From Candidatus Aenigmatarchaeota archaeon (GTDB lineage Archaea; Aenigmatarchaeota; Aenigmatarchaeia; CG10238-14; SCSR01): DNA of 64,000 bases. The translations under genes and the position numbers were made by a program. The stretch is taken from assembly GCA_030615205.1 (NCBI GenBank), contig JAUWZS010000001.1:209492-273491 (forward strand), in the 5' to 3' direction. Positions 3,690 through 58,579 of this stretch are shown here, piece after piece (position 1 is the first letter of the stretch; each line of letters begins with the position of its first letter). The notes under the pieces are model-generated. The model did no database searches and was not told the DNA's origin. It saw nothing but the letters and a program-made list of their open reading frames with translations.

Positions 3690-5282
3690 TTGAAAATTGG
3701 CATTAGACGTATCATTTTGATTTTACTCCTAGCGATATCTATATGGTATCTTTTATCACCGAGCATATTTAGAGTCGTAGGTGTAAGAGTAATTTTCATT
3801 GATGGTAATGCCAAGTGCGGCAATCTGAAGATTGGAAATATAATAACACAGATTGAAGGAACCCGAATTGGGAATAGAGAAGATTACAATGTGGTCTTAA
3901 ACGCTGTCTCTGTTGGTAGCCATATAACTATGATTGTAAATGGTGGACCAGGTGGATGTACTGCATTAGATGCAGGTGGCCTGGGTATAAAAGTTACTGA
4001 TGTTGAGTATGGAGGACTTGAGTTTGGTACAGACCTTGTTGGTGGTGAGAAGGTTTTATTGTCAAGTAGTGATGATTTGGGTGATGACGATGTTTCTTAT
4101 ATTTCAGGTGTTCTTGAAAAAAGACTTAAAGTTACTGATCTTAAGGATGCTAAAATTTCTGTAGATGGCAAAACAATTATAATTTATACGCCTACCAGCA
4201 GCCGACTAGGACCATTATTAACAAATGGTAAAATCGAAGCTATGATAGAACAAGAAGTAAAGTTAACCAATGATAGTGGAAGGATTATAGTTAATACCAG
4301 CTCGTATGATATTTTTTGGAATGGTTTGAATGTGATAGTTGATGGGGACAGCTATAATATTGGTGATTTTTTTAGCCTTGAAGGCGTACAGTTCAGAGTG
4401 GCTAATGTAACGAATGTGTCGATTGTTGTAGACGCACTGATTTTTGATAATAACGACATTGAAAAAATACCTACGGTTGCTGGATATGTTAAATACGATA
4501 GTTTGACGAACCAATATCAATTTAATATACCGGTTGAGGTCTCAGAAGAGGCTGGTATAAGATTCTCAAAAATTACAAAGGGGTTAGTACCCTTGTACGG
4601 AATGGGTGGCAATGTGCTTAATGGTATGTTGGTTTATTATCTGGATTCTGAAGAAATTACAAGACTCTCAATACCATCTGATATGGTTGGCACGCCTATA
4701 AAAACGATTTCAATAGTTGGTGGTGAGTCTACTATGAAAGAAGCTGTTAATAAAAAAATATCATTTGAAATCGCTCTAGAAGGAGAACTAGAAAAGAACT
4801 TGTCTATAGAGAGCATAGATTATTTTTCTGGCGATCTTGGTTGGATGATTTTGGGCGGAGGAGCTGTAGTAATAAGTATTATAATTGTAACATTTGCCCT
4901 CGGCGCAATTCGCTACAAAAATCTAAAAGTCGGTGTGTTTGGCTCGATAATTTTGTTTTTAGAAATAGTATATATATTTGGTGTAGCTTCAATCTCACAA
5001 TCTGTTTTAACTTCTGGGTGGATAATAGACGCGGCTTCTTTATTTGGTGCTTGTACTTTTACAATTATTAGCATGACCCAAATTATTCTTTTATCCGAAA
5101 AGGCTTTGAGGCAACGTATTCTAAAAAGATATAATCAATTTGTGTTTTTAGTGTTTATTGTAGGATTTTTACTTCTATTTACGCCCTTAAACAGATTCGG
5201 CCTTGTATTGATTGTTGGCGGCCTGATTGGAACATTTCTGACAAAGCCTGTTTATATCGATTTCCTATCAGGGTTTAGGTAG
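3690..5282 (+). CDS. SecD/SecF-like membrane protein with N-terminal PDZ-like segment (putative)
   Basis: TTG start. One N-terminal TM, a large extracytoplasmic region, then five C-terminal TMs (SecD/F-like topology). PDZ-like stretch GNLKIGNIITQIEGTRIGNREDY. Confidence 0.4.
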   Translation: MKIGIRRIILILLLAISIWYLLSPSIFRVVGVRVIFIDGNAKCGNLKIGNIITQIEGTRIGNREDYNVVLNAVSVGSHITMIVNGGPGGCTALDAGGLGIKVTDVEYGGLEFGTDLVGGEKVLLSSSDDLGDDDVSYISGVLEKRLKVTDLKDAKISVDGKTIIIYTPTSSRLGPLLTNGKIEAMIEQEVKLTNDSGRIIVNTSSYDIFWNGLNVIVDGDSYNIGDFFSLEGVQFRVANVTNVSIVVDALIFDNNDIEKIPTVAGYVKYDSLTNQYQFNIPVEVSEEAGIRFSKITKGLVPLYGMGGNVLNGMLVYYLDSEEITRLSIPSDMVGTPIKTISIVGGESTMKEAVNKKISFEIALEGELEKNLSIESIDYFSGDLGWMILGGGAVVISIIIVTFALGAIRYKNLKVGVFGSIILFLEIVYIFGVASISQSVLTSGWIIDAASLFGACTFTIISMTQIILLSEKALRQRILKRYNQFVFLVFIVGFLLLFTPLNRFGLVLIVGGLIGTFLTKPVYIDFLSGFR

Positions 5283-7997
5283 AATATAATATTTAGATCT
5301 CTCACTGCCTTTGTAAAACAAGACCCTGCCACCACAAGAACCACATTTCCCGATTAATGGGGGTCTTCCATATGTTTTCCCACATTTCTCGCATACTACC
5401 CCATCTATGGAATCTAGTGGTTCACTTAGAGCTCTCGTTTTCGTGGGCTTCTTAGAAGTTTGTCTCTTACCAAAAAGGGAAGTTAAAAGCATCTGCCGTC
5501 CAACACCTAATAGTTCCGATTTGTCTATGCCCATAGATTCGAATACTCTTTCCAATGGCGGCAGCAACTGGTTTTCTATATAGTACTTGGAATCTATTTT
5601 CAGGCCATGTGCCTTAACATATTCTGGGTCTTCTGCACGATTTGAGAGCAATTGTAGACCTTGTGTAATAACAAATCCTATCCTATCACCAACACCGGGC
5701 GCATCGCTAGGGCTCCTTCTTCTCATCTTTTTAACAACTTCTATATGTGGTTGTATTCCTTTGTAAGACCTTACCGGTTTGGTTATACTTTTCGTTATAA
5801 CAAGACTCTCGATAGGTATTTCATTTTTTTGGAGTTTCTTCAGCACGCCGCGTACATACTCGAATGCTTTTTTCGGATTTTGTTCTTTAAGGATTATTTC
5901 CAATACTCTAAATAAGGTGGTGCTCACTAGGTCGCACCAGTCGCGTCTTATAGTTTCTATACCTTTCATAATTAAACTGTCTTCCCATTCATCATCGCGC
6001 TTTTCAAAACTCCATCCAGCGTACCTTTTTTTTGTTAGAATAAGTATGGATTTGAAGATGCTCTCTATCTTTATTTTAACTATGCCTTTAAGTTCGTTGT
6101 TTATCTTTTTCTCTAATTCTAAACCTATCTTGAACGCTTCATCTATGTCTTTCGCGTCAGTCTTTACCATTATTGAATCTGTATCTCCATAAATCACTTT
6201 ATACCGTTTATCCTTTTCGACAATATCTCTAGTCTTTTGTATTAAAAATCTCCCACAACTTGTTATCGCGTTTGCTATATCTAGAACATATACTTTTGCA
6301 CGTGTGTATCCAGTATAACCGTAGAACGCATTCGCCATTGTTTTTAGTGCAAACTGTTTTGCATCCAGCTCGCGCCTTTTATTTTCGTCTTTTGTTTTTC
6401 TCATTTCCTTTTTCACAAGGTCGCGTTCGTTGATTAGCTGTTCTACTATCCCAGGGATGATGCCGGGCCTGATTTCTTTTGAAACAAACCTAGTCCCGTA
6501 CGGTGTGTCCACGGCTTTTTCTTTACTGCCCTTTTCGAGTAATGTCGTTGGGCAGATATTGTATGATATGTATATGGAGGGGTACATGCTCTTGAAATCT
6601 AAATAAATTATACTAGCTGTATGGAGCCCTGTTTCCGGCTCAAGTACTAAAGCCCCTTTCAAAGCTTTGGTCTCTCTCTCTGTGGTTCTTTTCGAAATCT
6701 CACCTGGAGTTGGCTTGCAAGGTAGAACAAAACCTGCCTCATTAAATTTTCTAACCAATAGCGTTTCCAAACGGATTGATTCGCCGCCTGACAACGCATC
6801 TTGAAGCAATACCCCAGAAACTTTTGATAATTCTATAAATTTATCCAGCATATTCTTTTCTAGAATAAGTCTGAGCGCTAACACTGCATCCTTCCTAGAA
6901 TAGCTTATCAGTTTTTCTATTTTTTTATCATCACCGTTCCAATATTTTCCAATTTCGCTGTGAGTTATCTTTATTTTATCCTCGTTTAAGAGGGCTTTCG
7001 AAACGTCACCCAATCCGTATCTCTTAAGCCTCATCAGTCCTTTGCCCACAGACTCTTTTATCAATTCATACGCATCTGCTATAATTCTCCCAGTAGCAAC
7101 GTTTCTGTGCCACATCCCAAATTTCCTAGAATAGGCTTGTTTTTTCTTACATCTGCCAAGCATACATGGTATACCACACTGCAGGAATCTCTCTACTATA
7201 TATGGAAAATCAAAACCGTTTATGTTGTATCCGATAATTACATCTGGGTCAAATAAATCAACGACCCTTAAAAATTCTTTAAGCATCGCCTTCTCGTTTG
7301 TGAAACTTTTCACACTTTTGTCGCCGTTTTTAATTTGTTTTACAAGAAAAACCATCGAGTCTTGGTCATTATGTTTTGGATAGAAGGCCATACTTATCAT
7401 AGCTATTTCATCCTTTCTCGCGTCTGGCAAACCTTCACGACTGCTCATGACCTCAATATCAATGGACATATATTTCAGATCAGGGTTGATATCTTCATCA
7501 GTCGGTGCTATTTTTGATATTGTTACCCGATGGTTTGCTTTGACAGTTGTTGTGTTTGAGTGTCCTCCGCTTACTGTAACACCACTCATGCCAAATATAC
7601 CATTATCTACCATGAACCTATATTTGAAAAGTATGTCAGCCTCAAAGATATCTTTAACAAATTTGTTTCTCCTCAATTCATCCCTAATAGTTGGTACTTT
7701 AGATGGGTCTGTTAATGTAATTTTCAGTATGTCTGTCTTTTCTTTTTGGAATCCGATTGGCAGGTATTTTTTCAAAGTTTCTATTTTTATAACAAGGTTG
7801 TTGAATTTTTTATTCAGCAAATCGATGATGTGTGGTGTCCCATCATTACCCACAGGTAAAATGTAAAAGTACGGTTGAAATCCCTCATAAAACGCGCACA
7901 CTGTTTTACCTTCCTTTGTTTTACCAAAAAGTCTTATAACTGGCTTGTTTCCATTCATGAAATAATCGCAGTCTAGAAGTTGAAATGTTAGCTTCAT
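5268..7997 (-). CDS. polB: family B DNA polymerase with C-terminal Cys4 zinc-ribbon extension
   Basis: Exo I SIDIEV, Exo II YNINGFDFPY, Exo III YSRKDAVLA. Pol motif A DFKSMYPSI, motif B KTMANAFYGYTGY, motif C YGDTDS. C-terminal CEKCGK-x12-CGSCGG. Confidence 0.95.
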   Translation of the reverse strand: MKLTFQLLDCDYFMNGNKPVIRLFGKTKEGKTVCAFYEGFQPYFYILPVGNDGTPHIIDLLNKKFNNLVIKIETLKKYLPIGFQKEKTDILKITLTDPSKVPTIRDELRRNKFVKDIFEADILFKYRFMVDNGIFGMSGVTVSGGHSNTTTVKANHRVTISKIAPTDEDINPDLKYMSIDIEVMSSREGLPDARKDEIAMISMAFYPKHNDQDSMVFLVKQIKNGDKSVKSFTNEKAMLKEFLRVVDLFDPDVIIGYNINGFDFPYIVERFLQCGIPCMLGRCKKKQAYSRKFGMWHRNVATGRIIADAYELIKESVGKGLMRLKRYGLGDVSKALLNEDKIKITHSEIGKYWNGDDKKIEKLISYSRKDAVLALRLILEKNMLDKFIELSKVSGVLLQDALSGGESIRLETLLVRKFNEAGFVLPCKPTPGEISKRTTERETKALKGALVLEPETGLHTASIIYLDFKSMYPSIYISYNICPTTLLEKGSKEKAVDTPYGTRFVSKEIRPGIIPGIVEQLINERDLVKKEMRKTKDENKRRELDAKQFALKTMANAFYGYTGYTRAKVYVLDIANAITSCGRFLIQKTRDIVEKDKRYKVIYGDTDSIMVKTDAKDIDEAFKIGLELEKKINNELKGIVKIKIESIFKSILILTKKRYAGWSFEKRDDEWEDSLIMKGIETIRRDWCDLVSTTLFRVLEIILKEQNPKKAFEYVRGVLKKLQKNEIPIESLVITKSITKPVRSYKGIQPHIEVVKKMRRRSPSDAPGVGDRIGFVITQGLQLLSNRAEDPEYVKAHGLKIDSKYYIENQLLPPLERVFESMGIDKSELLGVGRQMLLTSLFGKRQTSKKPTKTRALSEPLDSIDGVVCEKCGKTYGRPPLIGKCGSCGGRVLFYKGSERSKYYILPKP

Positions 7998-8006
7998 ATG
8001 TTAAGA

Positions 8007-9263
8007 TTATGAGAGGTCAAGTTTATTAATTTCGCGGCTCTCCAAGTTTACTCCCCAAAAAATAGGATTGTCTGCCAGGTCGCCTGTTGTAATAATAGTG
8101 ACTCCTTTGTAGTTTGTTGTTTGTGGGGAATGAAAACCACCAGACACGAAGATGTCAGGGATTTGATCTATAACGGATTCCGTTGATGGTATACATGGTC
8201 GGCCAGGCTCTGCACAAGGGTTTAACTCTCTTCTCTTTAGTATATTTTTCATAACACTCATAGCATCGCCGCTCCACACATCATCATATTTACAGAGTCT
8301 ATCGCCTTGGCATAATAAAAAATTAATCCCATCAATCTCAAGAATTATAGGAATCTCCGAGACTAGAACATCTTCAGATTCTGGCGCTCGCGCGTCTTTA
8401 CTCGATTGTAAAAATATTTTGAAGGTTTCTTTTGGCATGCCAACCAACAACCTCTTAACATCTTCCGATCTTCTTGAAATCCCGCCCAGAATAAAGATGT
8501 ATACTTTTACATAGTTTTCTTTTCCGGTGGTTGTTTCAACCCATTTAACAAATTTTTCATATCTCTCTTTATCAAAATTTTTCGAGTCCATATGAAAGTC
8601 TGAAATGAATATACAATAAACACTTCTTTTCGCTTTTCTCGCTTCTCGTTTCAATGATACATCAGGCCAAATAATTCTTCTCGCCTTTATACCGTTAGGT
8701 GAAGAATCGCAAAGAACTGCAATCACATCATTCTCAAGTAGGTTTTCAAATTCAGATTTGTCTTTAAAATAAACGGTCGTGTTCCCTGTTAAATCCTCCA
8801 CTATAGCAGATTTCTCAATTTGATCCTTCTCCATCACCATACAAATTATAACAAATTGTTTTTGTTTCTGTATTTTATTTATTGACAAGAGTTTAGCAGA
8901 ATCGACTCTGCTCATGAGCAGTTGTTTCTTTCTTGTATAAATATCCGCAAATTCATTGGAATAATCGGATATAGAAATTTTCTCTTTTTCATGACCAATA
9001 TAAAATTTCTTTATAATTTTTATAGTTGATTCTTTCTCCTTCAATATGGTTTTCACAAAACTCAAGGTTATTATAGATGGTTGGGGTTTGGTTGCTTTGG
9101 TTTTTTGTATGAACTCGTTGGTCTTTTCTGGGTTTGTTATAAAATAATCCAGAGTAGACGTGTCTATCTGGTACCCTTCTTTTAGAAGCCTCACTACTAT
9201 TTCCTCTTTCTTCATTACAACCACCTGGCTCCCAGCAGCCGAGTAAATGAGACGACTGCCCAC
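8007..9263 (-). CDS. dp1: DNA polymerase II (PolD) small subunit DP1-like protein with degenerate phosphoesterase motifs
   Basis: N-terminal helical domain, OB-fold region (VEDLTGNTTVYF...) and a calcineurin-like C-terminal domain that starts FISDFHMDS. The later metal-binding motifs look degenerate (LGGISRR, QSSKD, GGFHS). The likely true start is MKKEE at 9215. Confidence 0.7.
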   Translation of the reverse strand: MGSRLIYSAAGSQVVVMKKEEIVVRLLKEGYQIDTSTLDYFITNPEKTNEFIQKTKATKPQPSIITLSFVKTILKEKESTIKIIKKFYIGHEKEKISISDYSNEFADIYTRKKQLLMSRVDSAKLLSINKIQKQKQFVIICMVMEKDQIEKSAIVEDLTGNTTVYFKDKSEFENLLENDVIAVLCDSSPNGIKARRIIWPDVSLKREARKAKRSVYCIFISDFHMDSKNFDKERYEKFVKWVETTTGKENYVKVYIFILGGISRRSEDVKRLLVGMPKETFKIFLQSSKDARAPESEDVLVSEIPIILEIDGINFLLCQGDRLCKYDDVWSGDAMSVMKNILKRRELNPCAEPGRPCIPSTESVIDQIPDIFVSGGFHSPQTTNYKGVTIITTGDLADNPIFWGVNLESREINKLDLS

Positions 9264-9283: not shown

Positions 9284-9541
9284 TCATCGTTTCAAAGTAT
9301 AAACAACAAGACCAGTTTCCCCAGTTTTTTTAGAGTGTGGTAGTGGTATTGGTTTAATATGGTTCGTTTCCACCAACTCTCTAACGTACTTTTGTACTGT
9401 GTTCCAACTCGTTTGTATCTCTAATTCTTCGGCCATAAGCCTGCACAAAGCAGATGTTGTTAAAGGTACAGCTGATTTTTCTAGGGTTGTGAGAATTGCT
9501 CTTAGCATATCGGATCTTTTGCTGGGTCTTCCTCTTTTCAT
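9284..9541 (-). CDS. small winged-helix DNA-binding protein (putative)
   Basis: 85 aa. Basic N-terminus, then a helix-turn-helix-like LTTSALCRLMAEELEIQTSWNTVQKYVRELV and a beta-hairpin wing GLVVYTLK. Confidence 0.45.
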   Translation of the reverse strand: MKRGRPSKRSDMLRAILTTLEKSAVPLTTSALCRLMAEELEIQTSWNTVQKYVRELVETNHIKPIPLPHSKKTGETGLVVYTLKR

Positions 9542-9686
9542 ATATTTTCTATGAATAGTTACAAAAATAAGTTTTTGTAAACATTCCTATCAAACTTCGA
9601 TTAAGCTGTCAGTAAATTTTGTTATAGTTGGTATATATGTTAATAATAAAAAATATAATTTATATTATATTATAACATTGTTATAT

Positions 9687-9720
9687 TATTAATTTATTAA
9701 TTTATTAATTTATTAATTTA
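9687..9720. repeat. tandem 8-bp repeat (TATTAATT)x4 in AT-rich intergenic region
   Basis: Read directly: tattaatt tattaatt tattaatt tattaatt ta. Confidence 0.9.
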
Positions 9721-9795
9721 CAGAAATATGGAACATTGTAAGGATTCTTTGCTGACAGGCTCCCCAACATTTTATACAAAATATCAGATTATTTT

Positions 9796-9852
9796 GTTGG
9801 AGAGTTCATAAAATATGGTTGGAGAGTTCAAATATATTAGTTGGAAACATCA
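9796..9852 (+). repeat. three 22-bp-phased direct repeats GTTGGAGAGTTCA (iteron/ORB-like)
   Basis: Exact 13-mers at 9796-9808 and 9818-9830. Degenerate copy GTTGGAAACATCA at 9840-9852. Inverted GTTGGGGAG at 9760-9768. GTTGGAAA at 9903-9910. Confidence 0.85.
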
Positions 9853-9954
9853 TAGAAATAAATCGATTTGTAACACAACTCCTTTATTAGTTGTTAAAAA
9901 TTGTTGGAAATTAACAAAATTCTTAGAATAAGACGCCATTGTTATAATTACACT

Positions 9955-10341
9955 TTAAAACTTAAACGAACTTCTTAATCCATGTATCACAAAAAATTTC
10001 ATTATAACCGCTCGGACAATCTTCTCCTTTTCCCGAACAGGCCCATAGTTGGTTGGGTTGCTTTTCTTGATTTTTTCCAAGAAACCGCATTTTACAAGAT
10101 TGGATAGGCGCTTCCTGAGTGCTTCACTCCCAACCTTTAAACGATTCGAATCCTTCAACTCTTGATAAAGAATAGGGAAACAGTATGGTTGTGTATCAAA
10201 GGGGAAATCTCTGCCAGTTATATAAAACTTTCTTAATATTTGCACATCCCAAAAATCCATCTTCTCAGCCAGGAGCAAGACAGTCTTTTCAAAATCATCT
10301 TTTAACATCGAGGTGTTTTCAACCATCATTAGCGCTTTCAT
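9955..10341 (-). CDS. hypothetical protein, possible wHTH
   Basis: 128-aa ORF with a plausible C-terminal recognition helix and wing (LRKRLSNLVKCGFLEKIKK). No family recognised. Confidence 0.4.
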   Translation of the reverse strand: MKALMMVENTSMLKDDFEKTVLLLAEKMDFWDVQILRKFYITGRDFPFDTQPYCFPILYQELKDSNRLKVGSEALRKRLSNLVKCGFLEKIKKSNPTNYGPVREKEKIVRAVIMKFFVIHGLRSSFKF

Positions 10342-10443: not shown

Positions 10444-11130
10444 CTATATTAAATTAACTATTTTTGCGGATACGTTTGAGCTAGATATATCTATATCTAT
10501 CACTCCACAATAACCCTCAGGGAACCTACCAGCGTTCACTATTTTAGTGTGGTCTATAGTATCTACACCACGCGCTTCGTGGATATGGGCGCAGATCGCA
10601 ACGTTTGGTTGCAACTCCTCAATAATTTTTCTTACCACTTTGGACCCAACATGGGCACCAGAACTTATTCTGTCCAACTTTGTATTATATGGCGGGTTGT
10701 GTGTGACCTGCACCTTTATTTTAGCGTTTTTAACTCTTTCGTAAGCTTTCCTAAGGCCAGCTTCTAGTTCTTCTTCTTCAGGTTCGAGTGGGGTGCCAAA
10801 GGGCGTTTTTGCGCCACCGAACCCGTAAAATCCAACATCACCTAAAATTTTGCCGCTGCCATGTATACTAATACCCCGCTCTTCTAAGAGAGGAACTATG
10901 TCTTTATCATGATTGCCTGGTATTGCTAGAATTGGTACGTTTAGAGCAATTAATTCCTCTAAAACAACTTTGGACACATCAATCCATGTGAACCCCCTTA
11001 TAGTTATTCCAATATCTATAAAATCCCCCGAGAAAACAATTACATCAGGGCTCAGTGACTTGACCCTATCTAAAAACTGTATAAGATTTTCAATATCGTT
11101 GTGCACATCACCAACAACAATTATTCTCAT
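10444..11130 (-). CDS. calcineurin-like metallophosphoesterase
   Basis: All canonical motifs are present: GDVHND, SGDFID, GNHD, THNPP, AHIHE. Confidence 0.85.
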   Translation of the reverse strand: MRIIVVGDVHNDIENLIQFLDRVKSLSPDVIVFSGDFIDIGITIRGFTWIDVSKVVLEELIALNVPILAIPGNHDKDIVPLLEERGISIHGSGKILGDVGFYGFGGAKTPFGTPLEPEEEELEAGLRKAYERVKNAKIKVQVTHNPPYNTKLDRISSGAHVGSKVVRKIIEELQPNVAICAHIHEARGVDTIDHTKIVNAGRFPEGYCGVIDIDISSSNVSAKIVNLI

Positions 11131-11193
11131 TCAAACTACACCTCTAATATAACATATATCCAACCTTTAATTTTAAAAACCATAGATTTAATT

Positions 11194-11532
11194 ATGACGC
11201 AAGCAAAAAAACGTGGATATAGAGTAGAAAGGAAAATACGCATGATGTTTGAGAAGCACGGTTGGAAAACAATACGTGCAGGCGCGAGCCTTGGAGAAGC
11301 GGATATAGTCTGCATCAAGGTCGGTACGTGCATACTTCTTCAGGTCAAATCAACGAAGAAGAAGAAGTTTTATTACTATGATTATATGAAACCGAGATTA
11401 GAAGGATTTCCGTTTTTTATTGTGGTGGATTTCGGGTATGGAAAAATACGAATAAGTAACCCGAAAAAAACATTGGAACCGACTGAAGGTGTCGATCTGA
11501 ATGTGTTCTTGAGGGACCCAAATCCGCGATGA
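11194..11532 (+). CDS. hjc: Holliday junction resolvase Hjc-like nuclease
   Basis: KRGYRVERKIRMMFEKHGW...RAGASLGEADIVC...LLQVKS matches the archaeal Hjc GxxxE...D...ExK-type fold pattern (QVK in place of ExK). Start moved to the ATG at 11194, because the upstream part of the track ORF overlaps the divergent phosphoesterase gene. Confidence 0.65.
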   Translation: MTQAKKRGYRVERKIRMMFEKHGWKTIRAGASLGEADIVCIKVGTCILLQVKSTKKKKFYYYDYMKPRLEGFPFFIVVDFGYGKIRISNPKKTLEPTEGVDLNVFLRDPNPR

Positions 11533-15036: not shown

Positions 15037-17229
15037 ATGCACATTTCAGAACTATCAAAGTACAAAATCCCAAAGCAATTTATCGAAAAATTCAAAGAAG
15101 AAAAAATAGGTAAACTGTACCCACCGCAAGAAGATGCAATAAAATGTGGCTTATTCGAAAGCAAAAACATAGTGCTTTCCGTTCCTACTGCAGCCGGTAA
15201 GACATTTACAGCAACATTAGCAACGATTAATAAATTATCCAACTTCCCAGTTAAGGTCGTGTACATAGTTCCACTTGTTGCTCTTGCAAATGAAAAATAT
15301 AATTATTACAAAAAACTTTTTGGCGATAAATGGCGAGTCGCAATTTCAGTTGGCAATTTCGACTCCGGAGACCAATGGCTTGCAAAATACGATTTCATAG
15401 TTTGCACTACAGAAAAGCTGGATTCTCTGATTAGACATGGTGCAGGTTGGATCAACGAAATTGGATTAATAATAGTGGATGAGGTTCACATGCTAAATGA
15501 TATTTCACGCGGTCCGACTCTCGAGGTTTTGATAACACGATTAAAAGAAATTGTCCCACATGCTCAGATTCTAGCGCTATCAGCAACTATAAACAACTCG
15601 GATGAGCTCGCTGATTGGTTGGGCGCTGAGCTTGTCGTAAGCGATTTTCGGCCAGTAAAACTTTATGAAGGAGTTTCATTCGGAGACAAAATCCATTTTT
15701 TGGATAAAGAAGATTATGGTATAAACGGAGTAGAGCAAGAGAATTCTATTCTTGAAAATACATTGAAGTTGAGAAAGCAGGCTTTATTTTTCGTATCGTC
15801 AAGGCGAAATGCAGAAGGCCTTGCGGAAAAACTAATGAAAACAACTCGTCAAAAATTGACTAAAATTGAGCGCGAAGAATTAGCTAAACTATCTCAGAAT
15901 ACATTGAACGTTTTAGAAGTACCTACGAGACAGTGTAAAAAACTTGCGAACTGCATTAAATACGGCTCTGCCTTTCATCACGCAGGACTTCTCAGAAAAC
16001 AGAAACAGCTTATAGAAGAAGGTTTTCGGAAAGGCTTGATAAAATCTATATCTGCTACACCCACGCTCGCAATGGGCGTAAATCTCCCAGCATTTCGCGT
16101 GGTCATACGGGACTCGAAAAGATATTACCGAGGCATAGGAGCGTCGTATATACCGGTTCTAGAATATAAACAATTTGTCGGCCGCGCTGGCAGACCTCAG
16201 TATGACAAATTTGGCGAATCAATATTAGTCGCAAAAACAGAGTATGACGCTAGCGAGCTTGTAGACCGTTTTATTATGGGCGAACCTGAAAAAATAAAAT
16301 CAAAGCTAGCAGTCGAGCCTGTTCTTCGTATGCATACACTCGCACTTATATCAAGTGGGTTTGCAAAAACAGAGCAAGCTTTACTGGATTTTTTCTCAAA
16401 AACTTTTTACGCATATCAGTACGGCGAGATTTCAATAATCGAAAGTAAACTTTTAGAAATTTTGGATTCTCTTAAAAACTGGAAATTTATTTCTGAAAAT
16501 CCCGGGAAGCTACAACCTACGAGAATAGGCAGACGTGTCACTGAGCTCTATTTAGATCCGCTCACTGCACACGACTTCATACAATCGCTCAAACCACATA
16601 AATCAAGAATATACCCGTTCGGTATAACCCAACTCATATCCAATACAATTGAAATGTCACCACTACTTTCTATAAGGTCAGGTGATTTTTCAGAGTTGGA
16701 TAACTTAATTGCAGAACGAGAACATATGTTTCTGCAGCATATACCGCAGCAATGGGATATCGCGTTTGATCGTTTTCTGCAAAGCGTTAAAACAGCAATG
16801 TTCTTCGAGGCTTGGATCAATGAAAAAACAGAGGATCAGATATTAAGCAAGTTCAGAGTTGCACCAGGTGAATTGCGAGGTAGGTTGCATATAGCAGACT
16901 GGCTGATTTATTCTTTACAAGAACTTGCGCTGCTTCTTGGAGCAAAAGAAATATTGAAACACATACGGAAAGCCAGAGCGAGACTAAAATATGGTGTTCG
17001 GGAAGATTTAATACCTCTAGTAAGATTGAAATCCATTGGCCGTATCAGAGCGCGAAAACTCTATAATGCAGGACTTAAAAGCATCGCAGACCTACGAAAG
17101 ATTCCTTTACAAAGTCTGTCAAGAGTAATCGGACCAAATATATCTTATGCGATAAAAGAGCAGCTTGGCGAGAAACCAACAAAACCTCGTGCCCATCAAA
17201 CAAAACAATTCAATTTAGAAAAATTCTGA
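15037..17229 (+). CDS. hel308: Ski2-like ATP-dependent DNA helicase Hel308
   Basis: Walker A PTAAGKT, DEVH box, SAT motif, and a C-terminal HhH-like domain (RIRARKLYNAGLKSIADL). Confidence 0.9.
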   Translation: MHISELSKYKIPKQFIEKFKEEKIGKLYPPQEDAIKCGLFESKNIVLSVPTAAGKTFTATLATINKLSNFPVKVVYIVPLVALANEKYNYYKKLFGDKWRVAISVGNFDSGDQWLAKYDFIVCTTEKLDSLIRHGAGWINEIGLIIVDEVHMLNDISRGPTLEVLITRLKEIVPHAQILALSATINNSDELADWLGAELVVSDFRPVKLYEGVSFGDKIHFLDKEDYGINGVEQENSILENTLKLRKQALFFVSSRRNAEGLAEKLMKTTRQKLTKIEREELAKLSQNTLNVLEVPTRQCKKLANCIKYGSAFHHAGLLRKQKQLIEEGFRKGLIKSISATPTLAMGVNLPAFRVVIRDSKRYYRGIGASYIPVLEYKQFVGRAGRPQYDKFGESILVAKTEYDASELVDRFIMGEPEKIKSKLAVEPVLRMHTLALISSGFAKTEQALLDFFSKTFYAYQYGEISIIESKLLEILDSLKNWKFISENPGKLQPTRIGRRVTELYLDPLTAHDFIQSLKPHKSRIYPFGITQLISNTIEMSPLLSIRSGDFSELDNLIAEREHMFLQHIPQQWDIAFDRFLQSVKTAMFFEAWINEKTEDQILSKFRVAPGELRGRLHIADWLIYSLQELALLLGAKEILKHIRKARARLKYGVREDLIPLVRLKSIGRIRARKLYNAGLKSIADLRKIPLQSLSRVIGPNISYAIKEQLGEKPTKPRAHQTKQFNLEKF

Positions 17230-17239
17230 CCGTTGTGGA

Positions 17240-17335
17240 TGGGATTGTTGGGATTTGAACCCAAGTCTTAGCCTCCCGAAGGCTAGATCCTTTTGGCGGT
17301 GCATTTGCACCTAGACCAAACTAGACGACAACCCC
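17240..17335 (-). tRNA. tRNA-Pro(CGG) with a ~23-nt non-canonical intron in the D-arm/position-26 region
   Basis: Hand fold: acceptor GGGGUUG/CAAUCCC, anticodon arm UAGCC-UUCGGGA-GGCUA, T arm UUGGG-UUCAAAU-CCCAA. There are 43 nt between the acceptor and the anticodon stem, against ~19 expected, and they include the hairpin GGUGCA-AA-UGCACC. Confidence 0.65.
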
Positions 17336-20275: not shown

Positions 20276-21367
20276 TTAAGTAAGATTAGAAACATTAGAA
20301 ATTATACAATTTTTGAACTTTTCAAAATCAGATGTCCTAATAGAACCACCAGCAGCATGCCTATGTCCGCCCCCACCTAATGTACAACATTTTTCCATCA
20401 ATTTTCCTAAGTGAATTTTGCCACTTTGATATCTCGAGTGGACTTTAAAATTCTCTCCACGTCTTTCAAGCAAGATTATAAATTTGTCCTCGTTTTCAAA
20501 ACTAATATCGTTTAAGAGTGCTGAACCCATTCTTTTGAGAGTTGGAGTTATTACAGAGATAATTATGTTGTCAATTTTTTCAGCTTTGTTCCAAAATTCT
20601 TTTTCCACACCATTATACGCTTTTTCGAATTTACTATAGGCAGAAATGACTTTAGGATTTGATTTTAGTTTAGACAAGTTTTCAGATTCTATAAGAATCT
20701 CAATTACATTTCTAGCTTCTATTATAATCGTTCCATAAACCATTTTAGAAACTTTCCAAAAATCCGTTTTAATTACATCTTTCTTCTTTTCAACATGCAC
20801 CCATTTTTCCAAAAGATCCTTACAATCTTCAAATGCATAATCGCCTATTGTGCCAAGCACCGCCAACCATTCTAAATCTTTTAAATCAACGATCGAAGAC
20901 AAAAATTTATATACGATATAACTGGTAGGCTGGTATATCTCTTCATTTTCAAATCTCGGATTTATGTAAACTATTTTATCTGCATTCAAATCCACCCTCA
21001 AGGAGTGATGATCTATTATAAGAGTTTGGCCTTCAAAATTTTCGAACTCTTTTTTAAGGTAAGAAACGTCAACATCGAGTATAATTATTTTATTGTAACT
21101 CTTGACATCCTCACTTTTAACTAAATTTTCTATTTCTTCATTTGCAGCAGCGGTTATCTCTATCTTTATATTTTTATCAATGCGCTTCAACCCAGCAAGA
21201 AAAATGGCTCCAGAGCAATAACCATCTACATCTGTGTGATGAATTAAAAGAACATTTTCCGAAGGATTTATGCTTTCAATAAAACCCTTTCCTTTTTCAA
21301 ACAAATCATTTAGATTTCTTTTCTTTGGACTTTTGCTCAGACGATTTTTGGATTTCAGAGCCTTCAC
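20276..21367 (-). CDS. DHH/DHHA1 family phosphoesterase (RecJ/NrnA-like)
   Basis: HHTDVDGY, DHH (IIDHHS), and the DHHA1 motif GGGHRHAAGG. Confidence 0.8.
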   Translation of the reverse strand: MKALKSKNRLSKSPKKRNLNDLFEKGKGFIESINPSENVLLIHHTDVDGYCSGAIFLAGLKRIDKNIKIEITAAANEEIENLVKSEDVKSYNKIIILDVDVSYLKKEFENFEGQTLIIDHHSLRVDLNADKIVYINPRFENEEIYQPTSYIVYKFLSSIVDLKDLEWLAVLGTIGDYAFEDCKDLLEKWVHVEKKKDVIKTDFWKVSKMVYGTIIIEARNVIEILIESENLSKLKSNPKVISAYSKFEKAYNGVEKEFWNKAEKIDNIIISVITPTLKRMGSALLNDISFENEDKFIILLERRGENFKVHSRYQSGKIHLGKLMEKCCTLGGGGHRHAAGGSIRTSDFEKFKNCIISNVSNLT

Positions 21368-27513: not shown

Positions 27514-27653
27514 TGCGGGAGGTGGGATTCGAACCCACGAAGGCACTAAGCCACAGGGTTTCTTATTTAGCTTGGTTTTCATCATCTTTTCATCTGCGCT
27601 TAAGATGTATAATCTTAAGCCCTGCGCCATCGACCAGACTAGGCGACCCCCGC
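27514..27653 (-). tRNA. tRNA-Leu(UAA), class II, with ~53-nt intron at the canonical 37/38 position
   Basis: Hand fold: acceptor GCGGGGG/CUCCCGC, anticodon stem CAGGG...CCCUG, loop CUUAAG-[intron]-A, long variable arm UGGCUUAGUGCCUUC, T arm GUGGG-UUCGAAU-CCCAC. Confidence 0.75.
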
Positions 27654-30251: not shown

Positions 30252-30360
30252 TGGACCGACCGGGACTCGAACCCGGAGCCTCCACCATGCCAAGGTGGCG
30301 ATCTTGGCAACTTTTTGATGAGACTTTTTCCAAAAGTTTCTACCATTGATCTATCGGCCC
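30252..30360 (-). tRNA. tRNA-Ala(GGC) with ~37-nt intron inside the D-loop
   Basis: Hand fold: acceptor GGGCCGA/UCGGUCC carrying the G3-U70 alanine identity pair. The D stem GAUC...GAUC is split by an insert containing the helix AACUUUUUG/CAAAAAGUU. Anticodon arm CCACC-UUGGCAU-GGUGG, T arm CCGGG-UUCGAGU-CCCGG. Confidence 0.75.
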
Positions 30361-42439: not shown

Positions 42440-42558
42440 AGCGGAGTGGAGCAGTCAGCGACGTATTCGCCTGCAATGGAGTGCTCGTCGGGCTCATATA
42501 AAAGCTAAAAGCTTTTTGAGAGACCCGAAGGTCCTAGGTTCAAATCCTAGCTCCGCTA
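42440..42558 (+). tRNA. initiator tRNA-Met(CAU) with two introns (D-loop and canonical 37/38)
   Basis: Hand fold: A1-U72 acceptor AGCGGAG/CUCCGCU. The D stem GAGC/GCUC encloses a ~30-nt loop containing the hairpin GCGA-CGUAU-UCGC. Anticodon stem UCGGG/CCCGA with three G-C pairs, loop CUCAUA-[~24 nt]-A. T arm CUAGG-UUCAAAU-CCUAG. Confidence 0.7.
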
Positions 42559-43081: not shown

Positions 43082-45772
43082 TTAAAATAAAAAGCTTACT
43101 AATACAACTGCAGCAATGAGCATTATTTGAATTATTCCGAAAAAGCCAAAATCCGGCAGGCTTATAAGACCTCCTTTAACAATGAGTGTCTGATCAGATT
43201 CTATCTTGTTAGGACTTTGTGACGTATCTGACGATATTGAAACATCTGCAGTAGCAGTTTGTTCAGATGATAATACATTAACACCGACATAAATCTGTTG
43301 AACGTCGTTTGTGCTTAGCGACGCTGTGGTCTGGGCACCATTTTCGATAATTAATAGTCCTGGATCGGTTGCAACAACACTAATTCCATATGTATCACTC
43401 AAGGTACCATTGTTTTTAACAATAATGACAAGGTCCTGTCCTTCACCAACTACTAAACTCATACTACTCGGCATAAAGACTTCAAATGAAATCGGATAAA
43501 ATATTCTAGTGACTTCAACATATGTACCTGGGTCAATAGGATCAAAGGCTTTGCAATATATTGTATTTGGGTTTGTTCTCAGCTCACCACCCGGATCTGG
43601 TGTCATATCGTATTCTGCTGGTGGTAATAATATTGTACATCCTCCGCCACCAGGCTCACTAGAATATGGGAAAGGATTGCAGTTCCAGAGACCATTTAAT
43701 TCACACTCTACATTCACTGTAGCGCCTCCATACTCAGTGACCCAGTTTATATTAATTTGATCTAGAGTAGTCGAGAAGTGAAGGGATCTAATTTCTAGGG
43801 GTTCAGGTGGACTTTCCTCACTTCCCCAACTTCCGTGGGTTGGTTCTGGAGAGGCGTATTTTCTAAGTGTCATGGCATCCCAGTAACTAACATCTCCATC
43901 ATAGAGCAAATTAATCTGAAAACTTCCAAAGCTTGATAGATAAGGAGAAGTGCGGCTGCCAGCACCATTGCCATCACAAGTCGCAGTATAATCACTTCCA
44001 GTAATCTTAACTTCAAAATCATGCCATCCAGAAGCTCTATCGACACCTAATGAATATCCAGTTCCAACTTCCCCAGATTGCCATTCGACTATTGAATAAA
44101 CAGTTCCATCCTGAAATTGTTTATTATATTCTGTATCAACACCTAAACTGAGAGTGGGAGCGGAAGCGGTGCAATCCGCACCACCACTAATAAATAACCT
44201 GAATCTTACACCAGAATCTGATGGATTATTTTCTTTGAAATGGATACTAAGAATCCCAGTATTTCCTGTACTTCCCATATCATGGCAGAGACTGTCACCA
44301 GCTTCAATCTCTACAGAGCTAGTCCCATGCCATTGTTCAGATGCAACAAGGGTTGGACTTCCTCCAGTGGTCCATTGACTAAGGTCAGTTTCGAAGTCAT
44401 CAAAAAAATCAAATGTAGCACTGCCATCACTAGTCGTTGTAGCACCACTATTTCCATAGTACATGTAAATTGTTCGATCCGCCGTACTCAAATCATCTCG
44501 AACTTCAACCCAGAATGTTGCTGTGCTCGCGTCGTACGACTCCAACCAATAATCCAATTCTGTGGCTCCATCGTTATCTGTAAATCGTAGATCATCCGGC
44601 CAGTTCTGAGCATGACCATTCAAATAAACATCCTCACCGCTGTCCGTGCCACTTCCGCTATGTACAACGATTTTGACTTGATAGTTAGTATCAGCACCAG
44701 CAGCACTGTTGATTACGTGACTTTTGCGGTAGTTAAAACCAGAAAGCCATGAAGGTTCAGGTGCAATTTCTTCACTTTCCCAACTTCCATGGGTCGGTTC
44801 TGGAGACGTGTATTTTCTCAAAGTGATATTATCGAATTCTCCCTGAGTTCTTCTGAATGATAAAGATATATCTAAACCACCAGGTTGGGTTCCAATCGAT
44901 GCCTGACATGTTGAGTTCGAGTCAAATAGTGAACCATCTATATACCATGCACATCCTGGTATTGTGCTACCATTTACCACAAGTTTCCACTGATACCATT
45001 GATAGTACCACGGTTGAATGGTATCTTCAAGCGCTTGAATCACATTGTCATACTTCACACTAAATCCTCTTGTATAACTACCTCCAGACCTGTAGTATCG
45101 CATATAAAAATCATCAGTATCATAGAATTCAATCCTTCCACTTCTGTAAAAAGTCCCAAAAATACCTATATCTGGTTTTAATGCAGCTTCAAGTACATAT
45201 CCTTGACCAATAAAATTTTCAGTCAACTTTGTGTCATAATATAAATAAGTAAAAAAATCACCAGCCGTAGGACCTTTCACAACTTTAGTCCCATCCATAA
45301 CAACTGTCCACGATTCTGAAGATGACCAGCGACTCGGTGCTTGACCCACAGTTTCGTCTTCAAAATCCTCGTAAAAATCGTATGTTTCTGTTGCATTGCT
45401 CGTTGAAGAAACAGAAGGATTTCCATAGTACATGTAAATTGTTTTTGTGCTTGAAGCTAGTATGTTTGGGACATTTACCCATACTGTCGCACTTGTACTT
45501 GGGGTATAACTTTCAACCCAATACGGAACCAAAGTTGTTTCATCACTATCTGTAAATCTAAGATCGCTAAAATCAGAGTTCATATCGCTATCATAAATGA
45601 CAATAATTTTAACTGGATAGTTTGTTAAATCGCTTCCTGAGTTCTCTGTAATATCAACTGGTCTTCTGAAATTCCAATCTATATCAAACCACGTCCCTTG
45701 GGAATAGACTAAAGGAGAAAGAAATAAAAATACAGTAAAAAAAGTGAAGAAGAATATTATTTTCTTAATCAT
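43082..45772 (-). CDS. large secreted surface protein with two DUF2341-like modules, LamG/jelly-roll-like modules and a C-terminal TM anchor
   Basis: N-terminal signal/TM MIKKIIFFFTFFTVFLFLSPLVYS. Two modules begin W(N/F)YR(R/K) and end IYMYYGN...FDFF(E/D)DFE. Linkers RKY(T/A)SPEPTHGSW(E/G)SEE. C-terminal LPDFGFFGIIQIMLIAAVVLVSFLF. Confidence 0.75.
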   Translation of the reverse strand: MIKKIIFFFTFFTVFLFLSPLVYSQGTWFDIDWNFRRPVDITENSGSDLTNYPVKIIVIYDSDMNSDFSDLRFTDSDETTLVPYWVESYTPSTSATVWVNVPNILASSTKTIYMYYGNPSVSSTSNATETYDFYEDFEDETVGQAPSRWSSSESWTVVMDGTKVVKGPTAGDFFTYLYYDTKLTENFIGQGYVLEAALKPDIGIFGTFYRSGRIEFYDTDDFYMRYYRSGGSYTRGFSVKYDNVIQALEDTIQPWYYQWYQWKLVVNGSTIPGCAWYIDGSLFDSNSTCQASIGTQPGGLDISLSFRRTQGEFDNITLRKYTSPEPTHGSWESEEIAPEPSWLSGFNYRKSHVINSAAGADTNYQVKIVVHSGSGTDSGEDVYLNGHAQNWPDDLRFTDNDGATELDYWLESYDASTATFWVEVRDDLSTADRTIYMYYGNSGATTTSDGSATFDFFDDFETDLSQWTTGGSPTLVASEQWHGTSSVEIEAGDSLCHDMGSTGNTGILSIHFKENNPSDSGVRFRLFISGGADCTASAPTLSLGVDTEYNKQFQDGTVYSIVEWQSGEVGTGYSLGVDRASGWHDFEVKITGSDYTATCDGNGAGSRTSPYLSSFGSFQINLLYDGDVSYWDAMTLRKYASPEPTHGSWGSEESPPEPLEIRSLHFSTTLDQININWVTEYGGATVNVECELNGLWNCNPFPYSSEPGGGGCTILLPPAEYDMTPDPGGELRTNPNTIYCKAFDPIDPGTYVEVTRIFYPISFEVFMPSSMSLVVGEGQDLVIIVKNNGTLSDTYGISVVATDPGLLIIENGAQTTASLSTNDVQQIYVGVNVLSSEQTATADVSISSDTSQSPNKIESDQTLIVKGGLISLPDFGFFGIIQIMLIAAVVLVSFLF

Positions 45773-57064: not shown

Positions 57065-58579
57065 TTAGCTCGTTATCTGTATAATCGGTTTGCTCAAAGT
57101 CGTATTTGTTCCCATGTGCTCAACTGCCACGCGATGCTCTCCTTTCACAATACGGAGCGTGCCATTCAAATCGACATTTGAATATGGTATTACCAGCTTC
57201 TGTTTTTTTCGATTAGTCCTGCTAATTTTTATATTATCAAAGCTTGTGACCCCGTCCGGATTTGCTAGTACTATGGCGGCATTTGGTGTTTTTGCACCTA
57301 TGCTCTGCGAGCCGCTTTCAATTACCTTCTTCGTACTAAGTTCATATTCAGCCGCGATTTCATCCGAGCTTAGAGAAACATTCCAGATTTTTACTTCGTC
57401 GATAATGCCGTTGAAATATCCCTGAGTACTGTTACCTATTGATACTGGTGAAGTAGTATTAGTAATAGCACCTGTCAATGGGTCATTATTGCTTTCAATA
57501 CCGTTGATATAAACTCTTTGGTGAGCACCATCATAGGTAAATGCTACATGTGTCCATTGATCATTTGGAACTGTATTATCAGAAGAATAAGTTGCATAAG
57601 TAGCTCCCTGACGATTAACCCAAGCACCAATTTTATTAGGAGTATCTATAGTTACTTCGAATGTGTTTGCTTTTACTACTAAACCAATATTTGGGCTTTG
57701 GTCAGATGGAGATTTAACCCATAATGCTACTGTAATTTCACTAAAATTTAAACTCGGCGAATCAGAAACTTTAACATAATCATTCACACCATCAAACTTC
57801 AGACAGCTTAATCCAGCTTTGCAATCAGAATAGCTTTGCCAGCCACTTGTCGAATTCCCAGTAGTGTTCATATCCGTTAGTGTTCCATTGTTCAAATTAC
57901 CGGACCAATCATATGCTTTGCTGCCTGTCCGGTTGTCAAACGTCCAAAATCCGACGAGCCGCTCTGGGTTCGCAGGGAGCACGAATATTTGTCCGCCTGT
58001 TCCGCCACTCGAATTGTATATATCGCCAGAGAATTTGTAATTTTCAAGCGTGCTAAGATTATGATAAGCTAGGCCACCGTTGCCCTTGTATTTGTAATTA
58101 TCAACAATCCATTGACCAGATGTGTTTGTCCACACAGGATCAGCTTTGCTATCTTCAACATACCAGTTGAAAAAATCTAGGAAAACACTGCCACGTTCGA
58201 TGTATATGTCACCTTTTCTTCCTGTCAAGTACATGTGTTCAGACGGGTCATATGTGAATACGAGCGAATCAGTCGCTGCATTGATACTGTACTCACCTCC
58301 AGAAACAGAGACTGACACAGTCCGCTTGGAGCCTTCTGCTTCAGATGAAACTTCCTTTATAACACTGTTCAACAAATTCAAATTCTGAAAAGCGTCTGTT
58401 ATTACTGAGGAATCTTCAACGCGGTTGAATATGGGGTTTACAACTCCCAAAACCAGAGTTAGCATCAATACACCAAGCAGAATTGTTAAAACAGATGCGA
58501 TAAATGGACTAATTCCCTTTCGGTTCAAACTCATGCTAGACTCCCTGCTCAACAACTTTTCTATATAAATAGATTTCAT
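57065..58579 (-). CDS. archaeal type IV pilin-like protein fused to a LamG/concanavalin-like domain
   Basis: Class III signal peptide NRKG-ISPFIASVLTILLGVLML. The C-terminal half has LamG-like strands (LKFDGVNDYV...WTHVAFTYDG...VYINGI...IDEVKIWN). Confidence 0.75.
   Translation of the reverse strand: MKSIYIEKLLSRESSMSLNRKGISPFIASVLTILLGVLMLTLVLGVVNPIFNRVEDSSVITDAFQNLNLLNSVIKEVSSEAEGSKRTVSVSVSGGEYSINAATDSLVFTYDPSEHMYLTGRKGDIYIERGSVFLDFFNWYVEDSKADPVWTNTSGQWIVDNYKYKGNGGLAYHNLSTLENYKFSGDIYNSSGGTGGQIFVLPANPERLVGFWTFDNRTGSKAYDWSGNLNNGTLTDMNTTGNSTSGWQSYSDCKAGLSCLKFDGVNDYVKVSDSPSLNFSEITVALWVKSPSDQSPNIGLVVKANTFEVTIDTPNKIGAWVNRQGATYATYSSDNTVPNDQWTHVAFTYDGAHQRVYINGIESNNDPLTGAITNTTSPVSIGNSTQGYFNGIIDEVKIWNVSLSSDEIAAEYELSTKKVIESGSQSIGAKTPNAAIVLANPDGVTSFDNIKISRTNRKKQKLVIPYSNVDLNGTLRIVKGEHRVAVEHMGTNTTLSKPIIQITS

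Follow-up and report, generated by a model that had tools for sequence, protein, structure and literature searches.

The stretch analysed here, referred to as the window, comprises 64,000 nucleotides (nt) of contig JAUWZS010000001.1 from a Candidatus Aenigmatarchaeota archaeon. This work concerns a pair of adjacent genes on its minus strand (Table 1), which encode a family-B DNA polymerase (PolB) and a protein resembling DP1, the small subunit of the archaeal DNA polymerase PolD. The window has a G+C content of ~37 % and carries archaeal housekeeping genes, including those for Nop5, L10P, RpoD, FtsZ, Kae1, Hjc and Hel308. A first-pass annotation, made from the letters and predicted reading frames alone, had described a PolB with all exonuclease and polymerase motifs, preceded on the same strand and at a distance of 9 nt by a DP1 homologue, and had seen no DP2, the large subunit of PolD, in the window. 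These points were borne out: each of the motifs was located, the Pfam matches agree with them, both genes are on the minus strand with the 9-nt gap between them, and no DP2 was found among the 30 window open reading frames (ORFs) scanned, which included 27 of the 28 ORFs with 250 amino acids (aa) or more, the unscanned one being of 310 aa. The longest ORF of the DP1-like gene begins with a GTG. The downstream ATG is the likely start of the protein, since AGGTGG lies 5 nt upstream of it and the resulting length of 402 aa is shared with the nearest homologue.

The PolB matched the Pfam families DNA_pol_B (E-value 1.6e-116) and exo1 (2.6e-35). Its exonuclease motifs are Exo I (DIE180), Exo II (NINGFDFPY258) and Exo III (YSRKD366), and its polymerase motifs are motif A (DFKSMYPS467), motif B (KTMANAFYG), motif C (YGDTDS603) and KKRY656. 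Judging from these motifs, the enzyme looks catalytically active. In the comparison with PDB structures the Thermococcales PolB (1e-115, 391 bits) and human DNA polymerase delta (Pol delta; 4.8e-112, 378.8 bits) scored almost equally well, the match to Pol delta being a single continuous stretch from aa 15 to 828. The PolB is 91 % identical to its counterpart in the related locus L040 and 44-70 % identical to the PolBs of the loci found in GTDB genomes. The ratio of nonsynonymous to synonymous substitution rates (dN/dS) against L040 was 0.12, indicating purifying selection.

Beyond the Pfam polymerase domain the PolB continues for 88 aa (residues 822-909), or for 68 aa when counted from the end of the alignment with Thermococcales PolBs. 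The C-terminal extension noted in the first-pass annotation is thus present, and its length had been given slightly generously as ~100 aa. The Cys4 motif, written there as CEKCGK-x12-CGSCGG, is also present, as C869-x2-C872-x12-C885-x2-C888; the spacing between the two strings is x10, and the error was a trivial slip. After the polymerase thumb follow, in order, a box resembling a PCNA-interacting peptide (PIP), a linker rich in Lys, Thr and Ser, the zinc ribbon and 16 final residues. The lead-in of the PIP-like box, G-x-G-[KR]-Q, is invariant in the 24 related tails compared. The alignment of the PolB to that of P. furiosus (3a2f_A) extends to residue 769 of 775, where the C-terminal PCNA-binding box of the latter lies. 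The PIP-like box, QMLLTSLF, is therefore put forward as a putative PCNA-binding element.

A profile built from the 24 related tails matched the Zn-III module of DP2 from T. kodakarensis (6knb_B, residues 1127-1163, E 4.2e-11) and DP2 from P. abyssi (6hms_B/6t8h_B, E 1.4e-8), and no other family in PDB scored below 1e-3. The window tail alone matched residues 1131-1157 of T. kodakarensis DP2 (E 4.5e-4) and the NCBIfam DP2 model NF003103 (E 2.8e-4). Common to the tails and to Zn-III of DP2 is the motif F-C-x-K-C-N-x-x-[YF]-R-R-x-P-L-x-G-K-C-x-x-C-G-G. The four Cys residues are invariant in the 24 tails, and a Cys4 motif occurs in 68/68 complete PolB C-termini of related loci. There is a single Cys4 module in the tail, not the two-module layout (CysA and CysB) of the eukaryotic C-terminal domain (CTD). 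By homology, the Cys4 tail is the Zn-III module of DP2, the element with which DP2 docks to DP1. The KxRRxP loop of Zn-III is seated in an acidic groove of DP1 formed by its oligonucleotide-binding (OB) and phosphoesterase (PDE) domains, and a 20-aa Zn-III peptide binds DP1 of P. horikoshii with nanomolar affinity (Raia et al. 2019, PMC6355029). A single-sequence AlphaFold2 (AF2) model of PolB residues 780-909 was of low confidence (predicted local distance difference test, pLDDT, 56) and hints weakly at a disordered linker and at a lack of helices past the ribbon.

The best NCBIfam match of the DP1-like protein was the DP1 model NF003118 (E 2.6e-45), with all DP1 models remaining below their cut-offs. 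Pfam gave only a weak match to DNA_pol_E_B and none to Metallophos, and among PDB structures DP1 (6knb_A) was matched with an E-value of 4.6e-16. When 31 homologues were used, the AF2 model reached a pLDDT of 89 and a predicted template-modelling (TM) score of 0.79. Foldseek ranked P. abyssi DP1 first for this model (TM 0.70), with human Pol delta p50 (0.60-0.62) and the B subunits of Pol epsilon and Pol alpha as the next best matches. The N-terminal helical domain, the OB fold and the PDE domain typical of DP1 and B subunits are all present in the model. Together, the NCBIfam and PDB matches and the confidently predicted fold uphold the identification of the upstream gene as a DP1 homologue.

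When the protein was aligned with canonical DP1s, the loss of metal ligands became evident. At the eight catalytic or ligand positions it has DHGSKQGH, compared to DHDNHHHH in canonical DP1, and 3/8 are kept. In motif I (SDFHMDS) both the Asp and the His remain. Motif II, GDxxDG in canonical DP1, reads LGGIS, the Asp being replaced by Gly and followed by a deletion of ~19 residues. Motif III, GNHD, has become SSKD (Asn to Ser, His to Lys), the His of motif IV has changed to Gln, and motif V, GHxH, reads GGFH, with the first His lost and the second kept; deletions flank motifs II and III. Of the five calcineurin-like phosphoesterase motifs that are intact in a canonical DP1, three (II, III and IV) are accordingly lost and motif V is half lost. 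The first-pass annotation had stated that only the first motif was kept; it had not mentioned the loss of motif IV. The proton donor of P. abyssi DP1 is H451 (PMC6355029), and this is presumably the His of motif III, a position lost in the window protein. On this alignment the window encodes a DP1 whose nuclease is dead.

Within the family the nuclease site decays stepwise. Across 69 DP1-like members between 0 and 6 of the eight positions are kept: one sub-clade has 6/8 (DHDE[IV]HHH), the sub-clade of the window about 3/8 (DHG..Q/R.H) and the others 0-1/8. The length of the protein also shrinks along the family, from about 400 to about 300 aa (P0001-P0035, L001-L039). In contrast to the catalytic positions, the non-catalytic columns SINKI, VEDxTG, WPD, LKRRxL, PD and NYKG are invariant, and the first three of these vary little or not at all when canonical DP1 and the DP1-like family are taken together. 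The dN/dS of the DP1-like gene against L040 was 0.25, indicating purifying selection more relaxed than that on PolB. Identity is only 23-40 % across the genome loci, and at most 40 % to GTDB species representatives.

When the DP1-like alignment was used to scan GTDB species genomes, it yielded 39 loci, most of them titled Candidatus Aenigmatarchaeota and the rest mostly 'uncultured archaeon'; these titles, together with ~12 kb of shared synteny, agree with an Aenigmatarchaeota host for the window. Once 80 metagenome loci and the contigs carrying close homologues had been added, 86 loci with both genes were available, and among those that bear a name nearly all are Aenigmatarchaeota. In 80 of the 86 (about 93 %) PolB is immediately preceded by the DP1-like gene on the same strand, with a modal gap of 8-9 nt. 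A chance pairing is excluded by this recurrence. When IMG/VR was scanned with PolB and with the alignment of the DP1-like family, no relatives were obtained; these scans are of limited sensitivity and amount to a weak negative, which leaves a viral origin of the pair unsupported.

The two genes very probably encode a single two-subunit replicative polymerase that follows the eukaryotic plan, in which an active PolB carries a Zn-III-type tail and is partnered by an inactivated DP1. The motifs, the Zn-III tail, the DP1 fold and the conserved pairing thus favour the eukaryote-like operon that had been suggested from the first reading of the sequence. In such an enzyme the PolB, judging by its motifs, would carry out both synthesis and 3'-5' proofreading. 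Its PIP-like box would probably recruit PCNA and be followed by a flexible linker leading to the zinc ribbon. The Zn-III-derived ribbon would dock in the OB/PDE groove of the DP1-like protein, in the same manner as Zn-III of DP2 in PolD and the second Cys module of Pol alpha, delta and epsilon on their B subunits; the homology comes from the present comparison and the binding from the literature. Having lost its nuclease chemistry, the DP1-like protein would have the structural role of a B-subunit. Through the N-terminal domain that it retains, the polymerase would probably be tied to GINS/CMG or other parts of the replisome; in T. kodakarensis, the N-terminal domain of DP1 (DP1N) is reported to bind Gins51C (PMC9023282), and a GINS link of the DP1-like protein is conceivable by analogy. 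The gap of 9 nt suggests that the genes are co-transcribed and the subunits made in balanced amounts, and the enzyme may act as the main replicase.

Several observations weigh against this interpretation. The ~12 kb around the pair are syntenic as a block across the clade, so that adjacency alone says little about function. The docking loop of the window tail reads K-T-Y-G-R-P-P (GRPP), the first Arg being replaced by Gly; it is ERPP in L040, with Glu in place of that Arg, and SMMP in L001, and the nearest relatives have ERPP and RRPP. Because the sub-lineage of the window has a degenerate RR docking pair, the contact with DP1 may be altered there. Judging by its sequence and by the low-confidence model, the tail is also without the helical bundle that touches DP1 in PolD and in eukaryotes, and the Aenigmatarchaeota CTD has been called shorter and 'degenerate', with a different predicted structure (PMC12680538). 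Finally, a DP2 or a second PolB could be encoded elsewhere, the scan having covered 64 kb of a ~402-kb contig.

The block synteny and the degenerate docking pair would fit an arrangement in which the genes are neighbours through inherited synteny, with the ribbon binding DNA, PCNA or primase and the DP1-like protein acting independently, e.g. as a GINS/CMG accessory. It would also suit this explanation that Zn-III of PolD lies near the DNA minor groove (PMC6355029) and that PolB is on the opposite strand in L036, L037 and L039. However, where the DP1-like and PolB genes are separated both are kept, within about 3-4 kb of each other. DP1 bound the PolB-DP2CTD of Baldrarchaeia and Aenigmatarchaeota in yeast two-hybrid assays, alongside AlphaFold3 predictions (Nat Ecol Evol 2025, PMC12680538), and the P. 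horikoshii peptide shows that Zn-III by itself suffices for tight binding to DP1. We regard independent action of the two proteins as quite unlikely.

Still harder to maintain, in our view, is that the DP1-like protein pairs with a DP2 encoded outside the window, giving a PolD without proofreading and leaving the PolB ribbon with some other purpose. DP2 is described as absent in 'most', not all, Aenigmarchaeota by Kazlauskas et al. (2020, PMC7544198), and Supplementary Fig. S16 of that paper aligns some Aenigmarchaeota DP2-like sequences. On the other side, the ribbon of the PolB tail is specifically the module by which DP2 binds DP1, nearly all loci compared keep the pairing with PolB, and Aenigmatarchaeota are listed as lacking DP2 while retaining DP1 (PMC12680538); none was found among the window ORFs scanned. 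A specialised nuclease with residual catalytic or metal-binding function, to which the retained DxH of motif I, the remaining His of motif V and the sister sub-clade with 6/8 positions might point, is least credible of all, given the losses in motifs II to V (including the probable proton donor) and the deletions at II and III, the members with 0-1/8 positions yet the same length and pairing, and the exonuclease that PolB itself possesses.

The order of genes around the polymerase pair differs between relatives. A gene for a metallophosphoesterase (MPE), two small winged-helix-like ORFs, the DP1-like gene and PolB follow one another in the window, in L001-L022 and L027 and in most of the 40 metagenome loci with enough flanking sequence. 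In L023-L026 and L028 the order is MPE, Orc1/Cdc6, DP1-like and PolB, in L029-L035 it is Orc1, DP1-like and PolB, and in L036 and L037 it is Orc1, DP1-like and MPE with PolB nearby on the other strand. No Orc1 was found in the window, whereas in other Aenigmatarchaeota-type lineages Orc1/Cdc6 is located directly upstream of the DP1-like gene (L023-L039, e.g. L036 8593..11444 and L031 8435..13554). Origin-proximal cdc6-DP1(-DP2) clusters are known from Euryarchaeota (PMC2643942), and the orc1-DP1-PolB order is the positional equivalent of these. As orc1-DP1-PolB(Zn-III) mirrors orc1-DP1-DP2, the order suggests an in-situ replacement of DP2 by PolB at an ancestral, origin-proximal orc1-DP1-DP2 locus, with Zn-III as the sole remnant of DP2; a statement of such a same-locus replacement was not found in the literature searched. 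One of the loci, L024 (QNBZ01000113.1), is a 5.3-kb contig titled 'Planctomycetota bacterium' which carries the archaeal MPE-Orc1-DP1-like-PolB cluster and is most likely mis-binned Aenigmatarchaeota.

The MPE of the window has all five motifs intact (GDVHND, GDFID, GNHD, HNPP and AHIHE). In relatives the His of motif III is often replaced (GNQD, GNFD, GSWD), and in some the Asp of motif I is replaced by Cys. The MPE gene is found near the DP1-like gene in three gene orders, MPE-x-x-DP1-PolB, MPE-Orc1-DP1-PolB and Orc1-DP1-MPE. It could act as a nuclease in trans, or as a third subunit, taking over something of what DP1 has lost. It does not seem to be a split-off nuclease domain of DP1: its nearest PDB structure was Aquifex aq_1956 and DP1 was not matched. 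The metagenome scan with the MPE returned only close relatives with the same synteny, which does not separate functional linkage from inherited order. That the MPE is a functional partner of the polymerase and, at the same time, that PolB replaced DP2 in situ is a combination we consider unlikely.

The two winged-helix-like ORFs have no Pfam or NCBIfam family. They are 48-54 % identical to their L040 copies, compared to 82-93 % for the flanking genes; the 85-aa ORF (48 % identical to its L040 copy) occupies the same position in 20/39 genome loci. Both were considered as remnants of Orc1/Cdc6, and the similarity search found no relationship. An extra gene of 215 aa is present in this region in L040, L041 and L022 and has no counterpart in the window; by eye, its sequence possibly consists of a PD-(D/E)xK-like domain and a winged helix. 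The AT-rich spacer between the two ORFs, which sits where relatives have orc1, contains TCCAAC-type repeats (at 9760, 9796 and 9818, and two TTTCCAAC) as well as a short (AAATT/TTAAT)n run, and may be an operator or promoter, or a remnant of a replication origin.

On the other side of the pair, the gene for a SecD-like membrane protein converges on PolB, sharing 15 nt (5268..5282) with its 3' end, and this neighbour is conserved in 20/39 genome loci. Genes for an Hjc resolvase, a Hel308-type helicase and a DHH/DHHA1 protein add further replication and repair functions in the vicinity, and the last of these proteins could be homologous to RecJ/GAN (Cdc45-like). Of the five tRNA genes, four have lengths of 96-140 nt and, given these lengths, presumably carry introns; introns are common in archaeal tRNA genes. 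The three large proteins with DUF2341 or concanavalin-type lectin domains are probably surface proteins.

Table 1 Features of the window (positions in the 64,000-nt stretch)
Feature	Position	Strand	Basis or remark
PolB gene, 909 aa; family-B with DP2-derived C-terminal zinc ribbon, B6-aenigma1 type	5268..7997	-	ORF at the coordinates of the first-pass annotation; Pfam, PDB, tail profile; type assigned by domain features and tail match
3'-5' exonuclease domain, aa 116-329 (Pfam)	7011..7652	-	Exo I and Exo II inside, Exo III just downstream
Polymerase domain, aa 398-821	5535..6806	-	motifs A, B, C and KKRY
PIP-like box, aa 835-842	5472..5495	-	directly after thumb; G-x-G-[KR]-Q lead-in
Cys4 zinc ribbon, aa 866-893, homologous to DP2 Zn-III	5319..5402	-	tail profile, single-sequence DP2 matches
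9-nt spacer, DP1-like stop codon to PolB ATG	7998..8006	-	sequence; same frame for both genes
DP1-like gene, longest ORF	8007..9263	-	GTG start
DP1-like gene, likely real extent, 402 aa; predicted inactivated PolD small subunit/B-subunit analogue	8007..9215	-	ATG at 9215; NCBIfam, PDB, AF2, Foldseek
N-terminal helical domain, aa 1-60	9036..9215	-	aligns with canonical DP1 N-termini; four helices predicted at aa 3-57
OB-fold domain, about aa 105-185	8661..8903	-	SINKI, VEDxTG, WPD conserved; beta-barrel predicted
Degenerate PDE domain, about aa 195-402	8010..8633	-	SDFHMDS / LGGIS / SSKD / CQG / GGFH
Winged-helix-like ORF, 85 aa, directly upstream of DP1-like gene	9284..9541	-	conserved neighbour
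AT-rich spacer, 413 nt	9542..9954
Winged-helix-like ORF, 128 aa, between MPE and DP1-like gene	9955..10341	-
MPE, 228 aa	10444..11130	-	Pfam Metallophos 5e-21
Hjc Holliday-junction resolvase	11101..11532	+
SecD-like membrane protein, 530 aa	3690..5282	+	below NCBIfam cut-off
Hel308-type helicase	15037..17229	+	with archaeal helicase domain 4
DHH/DHHA1 protein	20276..21367	-
tRNA genes, the four long ones	17240..17335, 27514..27653, 30252..30360, 42440..42558
DUF2341/concanavalin-type lectin-domain proteins, three	43082..45772, 57065..58579, 60928..63999	-	last ORF stops one base short of the window edge

The arrangement of PolB and inactivated DP1 is already known, having been published in 2020 and tested by experiment in 2025, and the window adds one more, divergent member. 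According to Kazlauskas et al. (NAR 2020, PMC7544198), a PolB of the B6-aenigma1 type and an inactivated DP1 occur together in Aenigmarchaeota, most of which have no DP2. Group B6 is placed as sister to the eukaryotic Delta-like clade, and for the window PolB the sole hint at such a position is its near-equal scoring against Pol delta and Thermococcales PolB. Compared with that description of B6-aenigma1 and its 'Aenigma_GB_GCA_002789635-like' DP1, the window pair has the same active PolB with a single C-terminal metal motif nearest to Zn-III of DP2, the same inactivated DP1 and the same host phylum, and differs in nothing essential. In the parts searched, that paper reports co-occurrence, whereas gene adjacency was observed here; in addition, the window has the docking loop GRPP instead of RRxP and a divergent DP1-like protein with at most 40 % identity. 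None of OIN85950, GCA_002789635 and PFTQ01 appears in the accessible portion of the supplementary text of PMC7544198.

The two-motif sequences earlier named 'B6-aenigma2' have been reassigned to Baldrarchaeia (PMC12680538). Their PolB3-DP2CTD is likewise a PolB fused to a DP2-derived CTD, which binds DP1 in yeast two-hybrid assays, in a lineage that has no DP2. This CTD of Baldrarchaeia is longer and has two metal motifs, like the full CTD of DP2 or of eukaryotes, whereas the window tail is short with a single ribbon. The B10 PolB of Heimdall/Hodarchaeales is also an archaeal PolB with a Cys-rich tail, but that tail falls apart from the DP2 CTD cluster and did not bind DP1 in yeast two-hybrid assays, in contrast to the match of the window family tail to Zn-III (E 4e-11). 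Archaeal PolD (PDB 6T8H, 6KNB) shares with the window pair the fold of the small subunit (N-terminal domain, OB and PDE) and the Zn-III docking motif, and with the relatives of the window the order of orc1, DP1 and catalytic subunit. The difference is that here the catalytic subunit is a family-B enzyme and not the two-barrel DP2, and that the DP1 nuclease is dead and proofreading resides on the catalytic subunit.

The arrangement represents a living example of a step thought to have yielded the eukaryotic replicative polymerases, in which a family-B enzyme supplants DP2 by means of an inherited DP1-docking zinc module and DP1 decays to a structural B-subunit. Earlier work has recognised this significance and tested it in part (Kazlauskas et al. 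2020; Nat Ecol Evol 2025). The present analysis provides modest descriptive additions, namely the tightness of the operon, the graded decay of the nuclease site from 6/8 to 0/8 within one phylum, the orc1-linked gene order in relatives, the retained PIP-like box and the conserved neighbouring MPE. Compared with the eukaryotic polymerases, no third or fourth subunit is evident here, and the eukaryotic CTDs comprise CysA and CysB (with an Fe-S cluster in Pol delta and zeta) and helices, whereas the window tail has one ribbon and no helical bundle. With Pol delta, alpha and epsilon and their B subunits (p50, p70 and p59), however, the pair shares the tethering by a Cys module to an inactivated, DP1-derived OB and PDE subunit, and as in Pol delta a PIP-like element is placed between the thumb and the Cys module.

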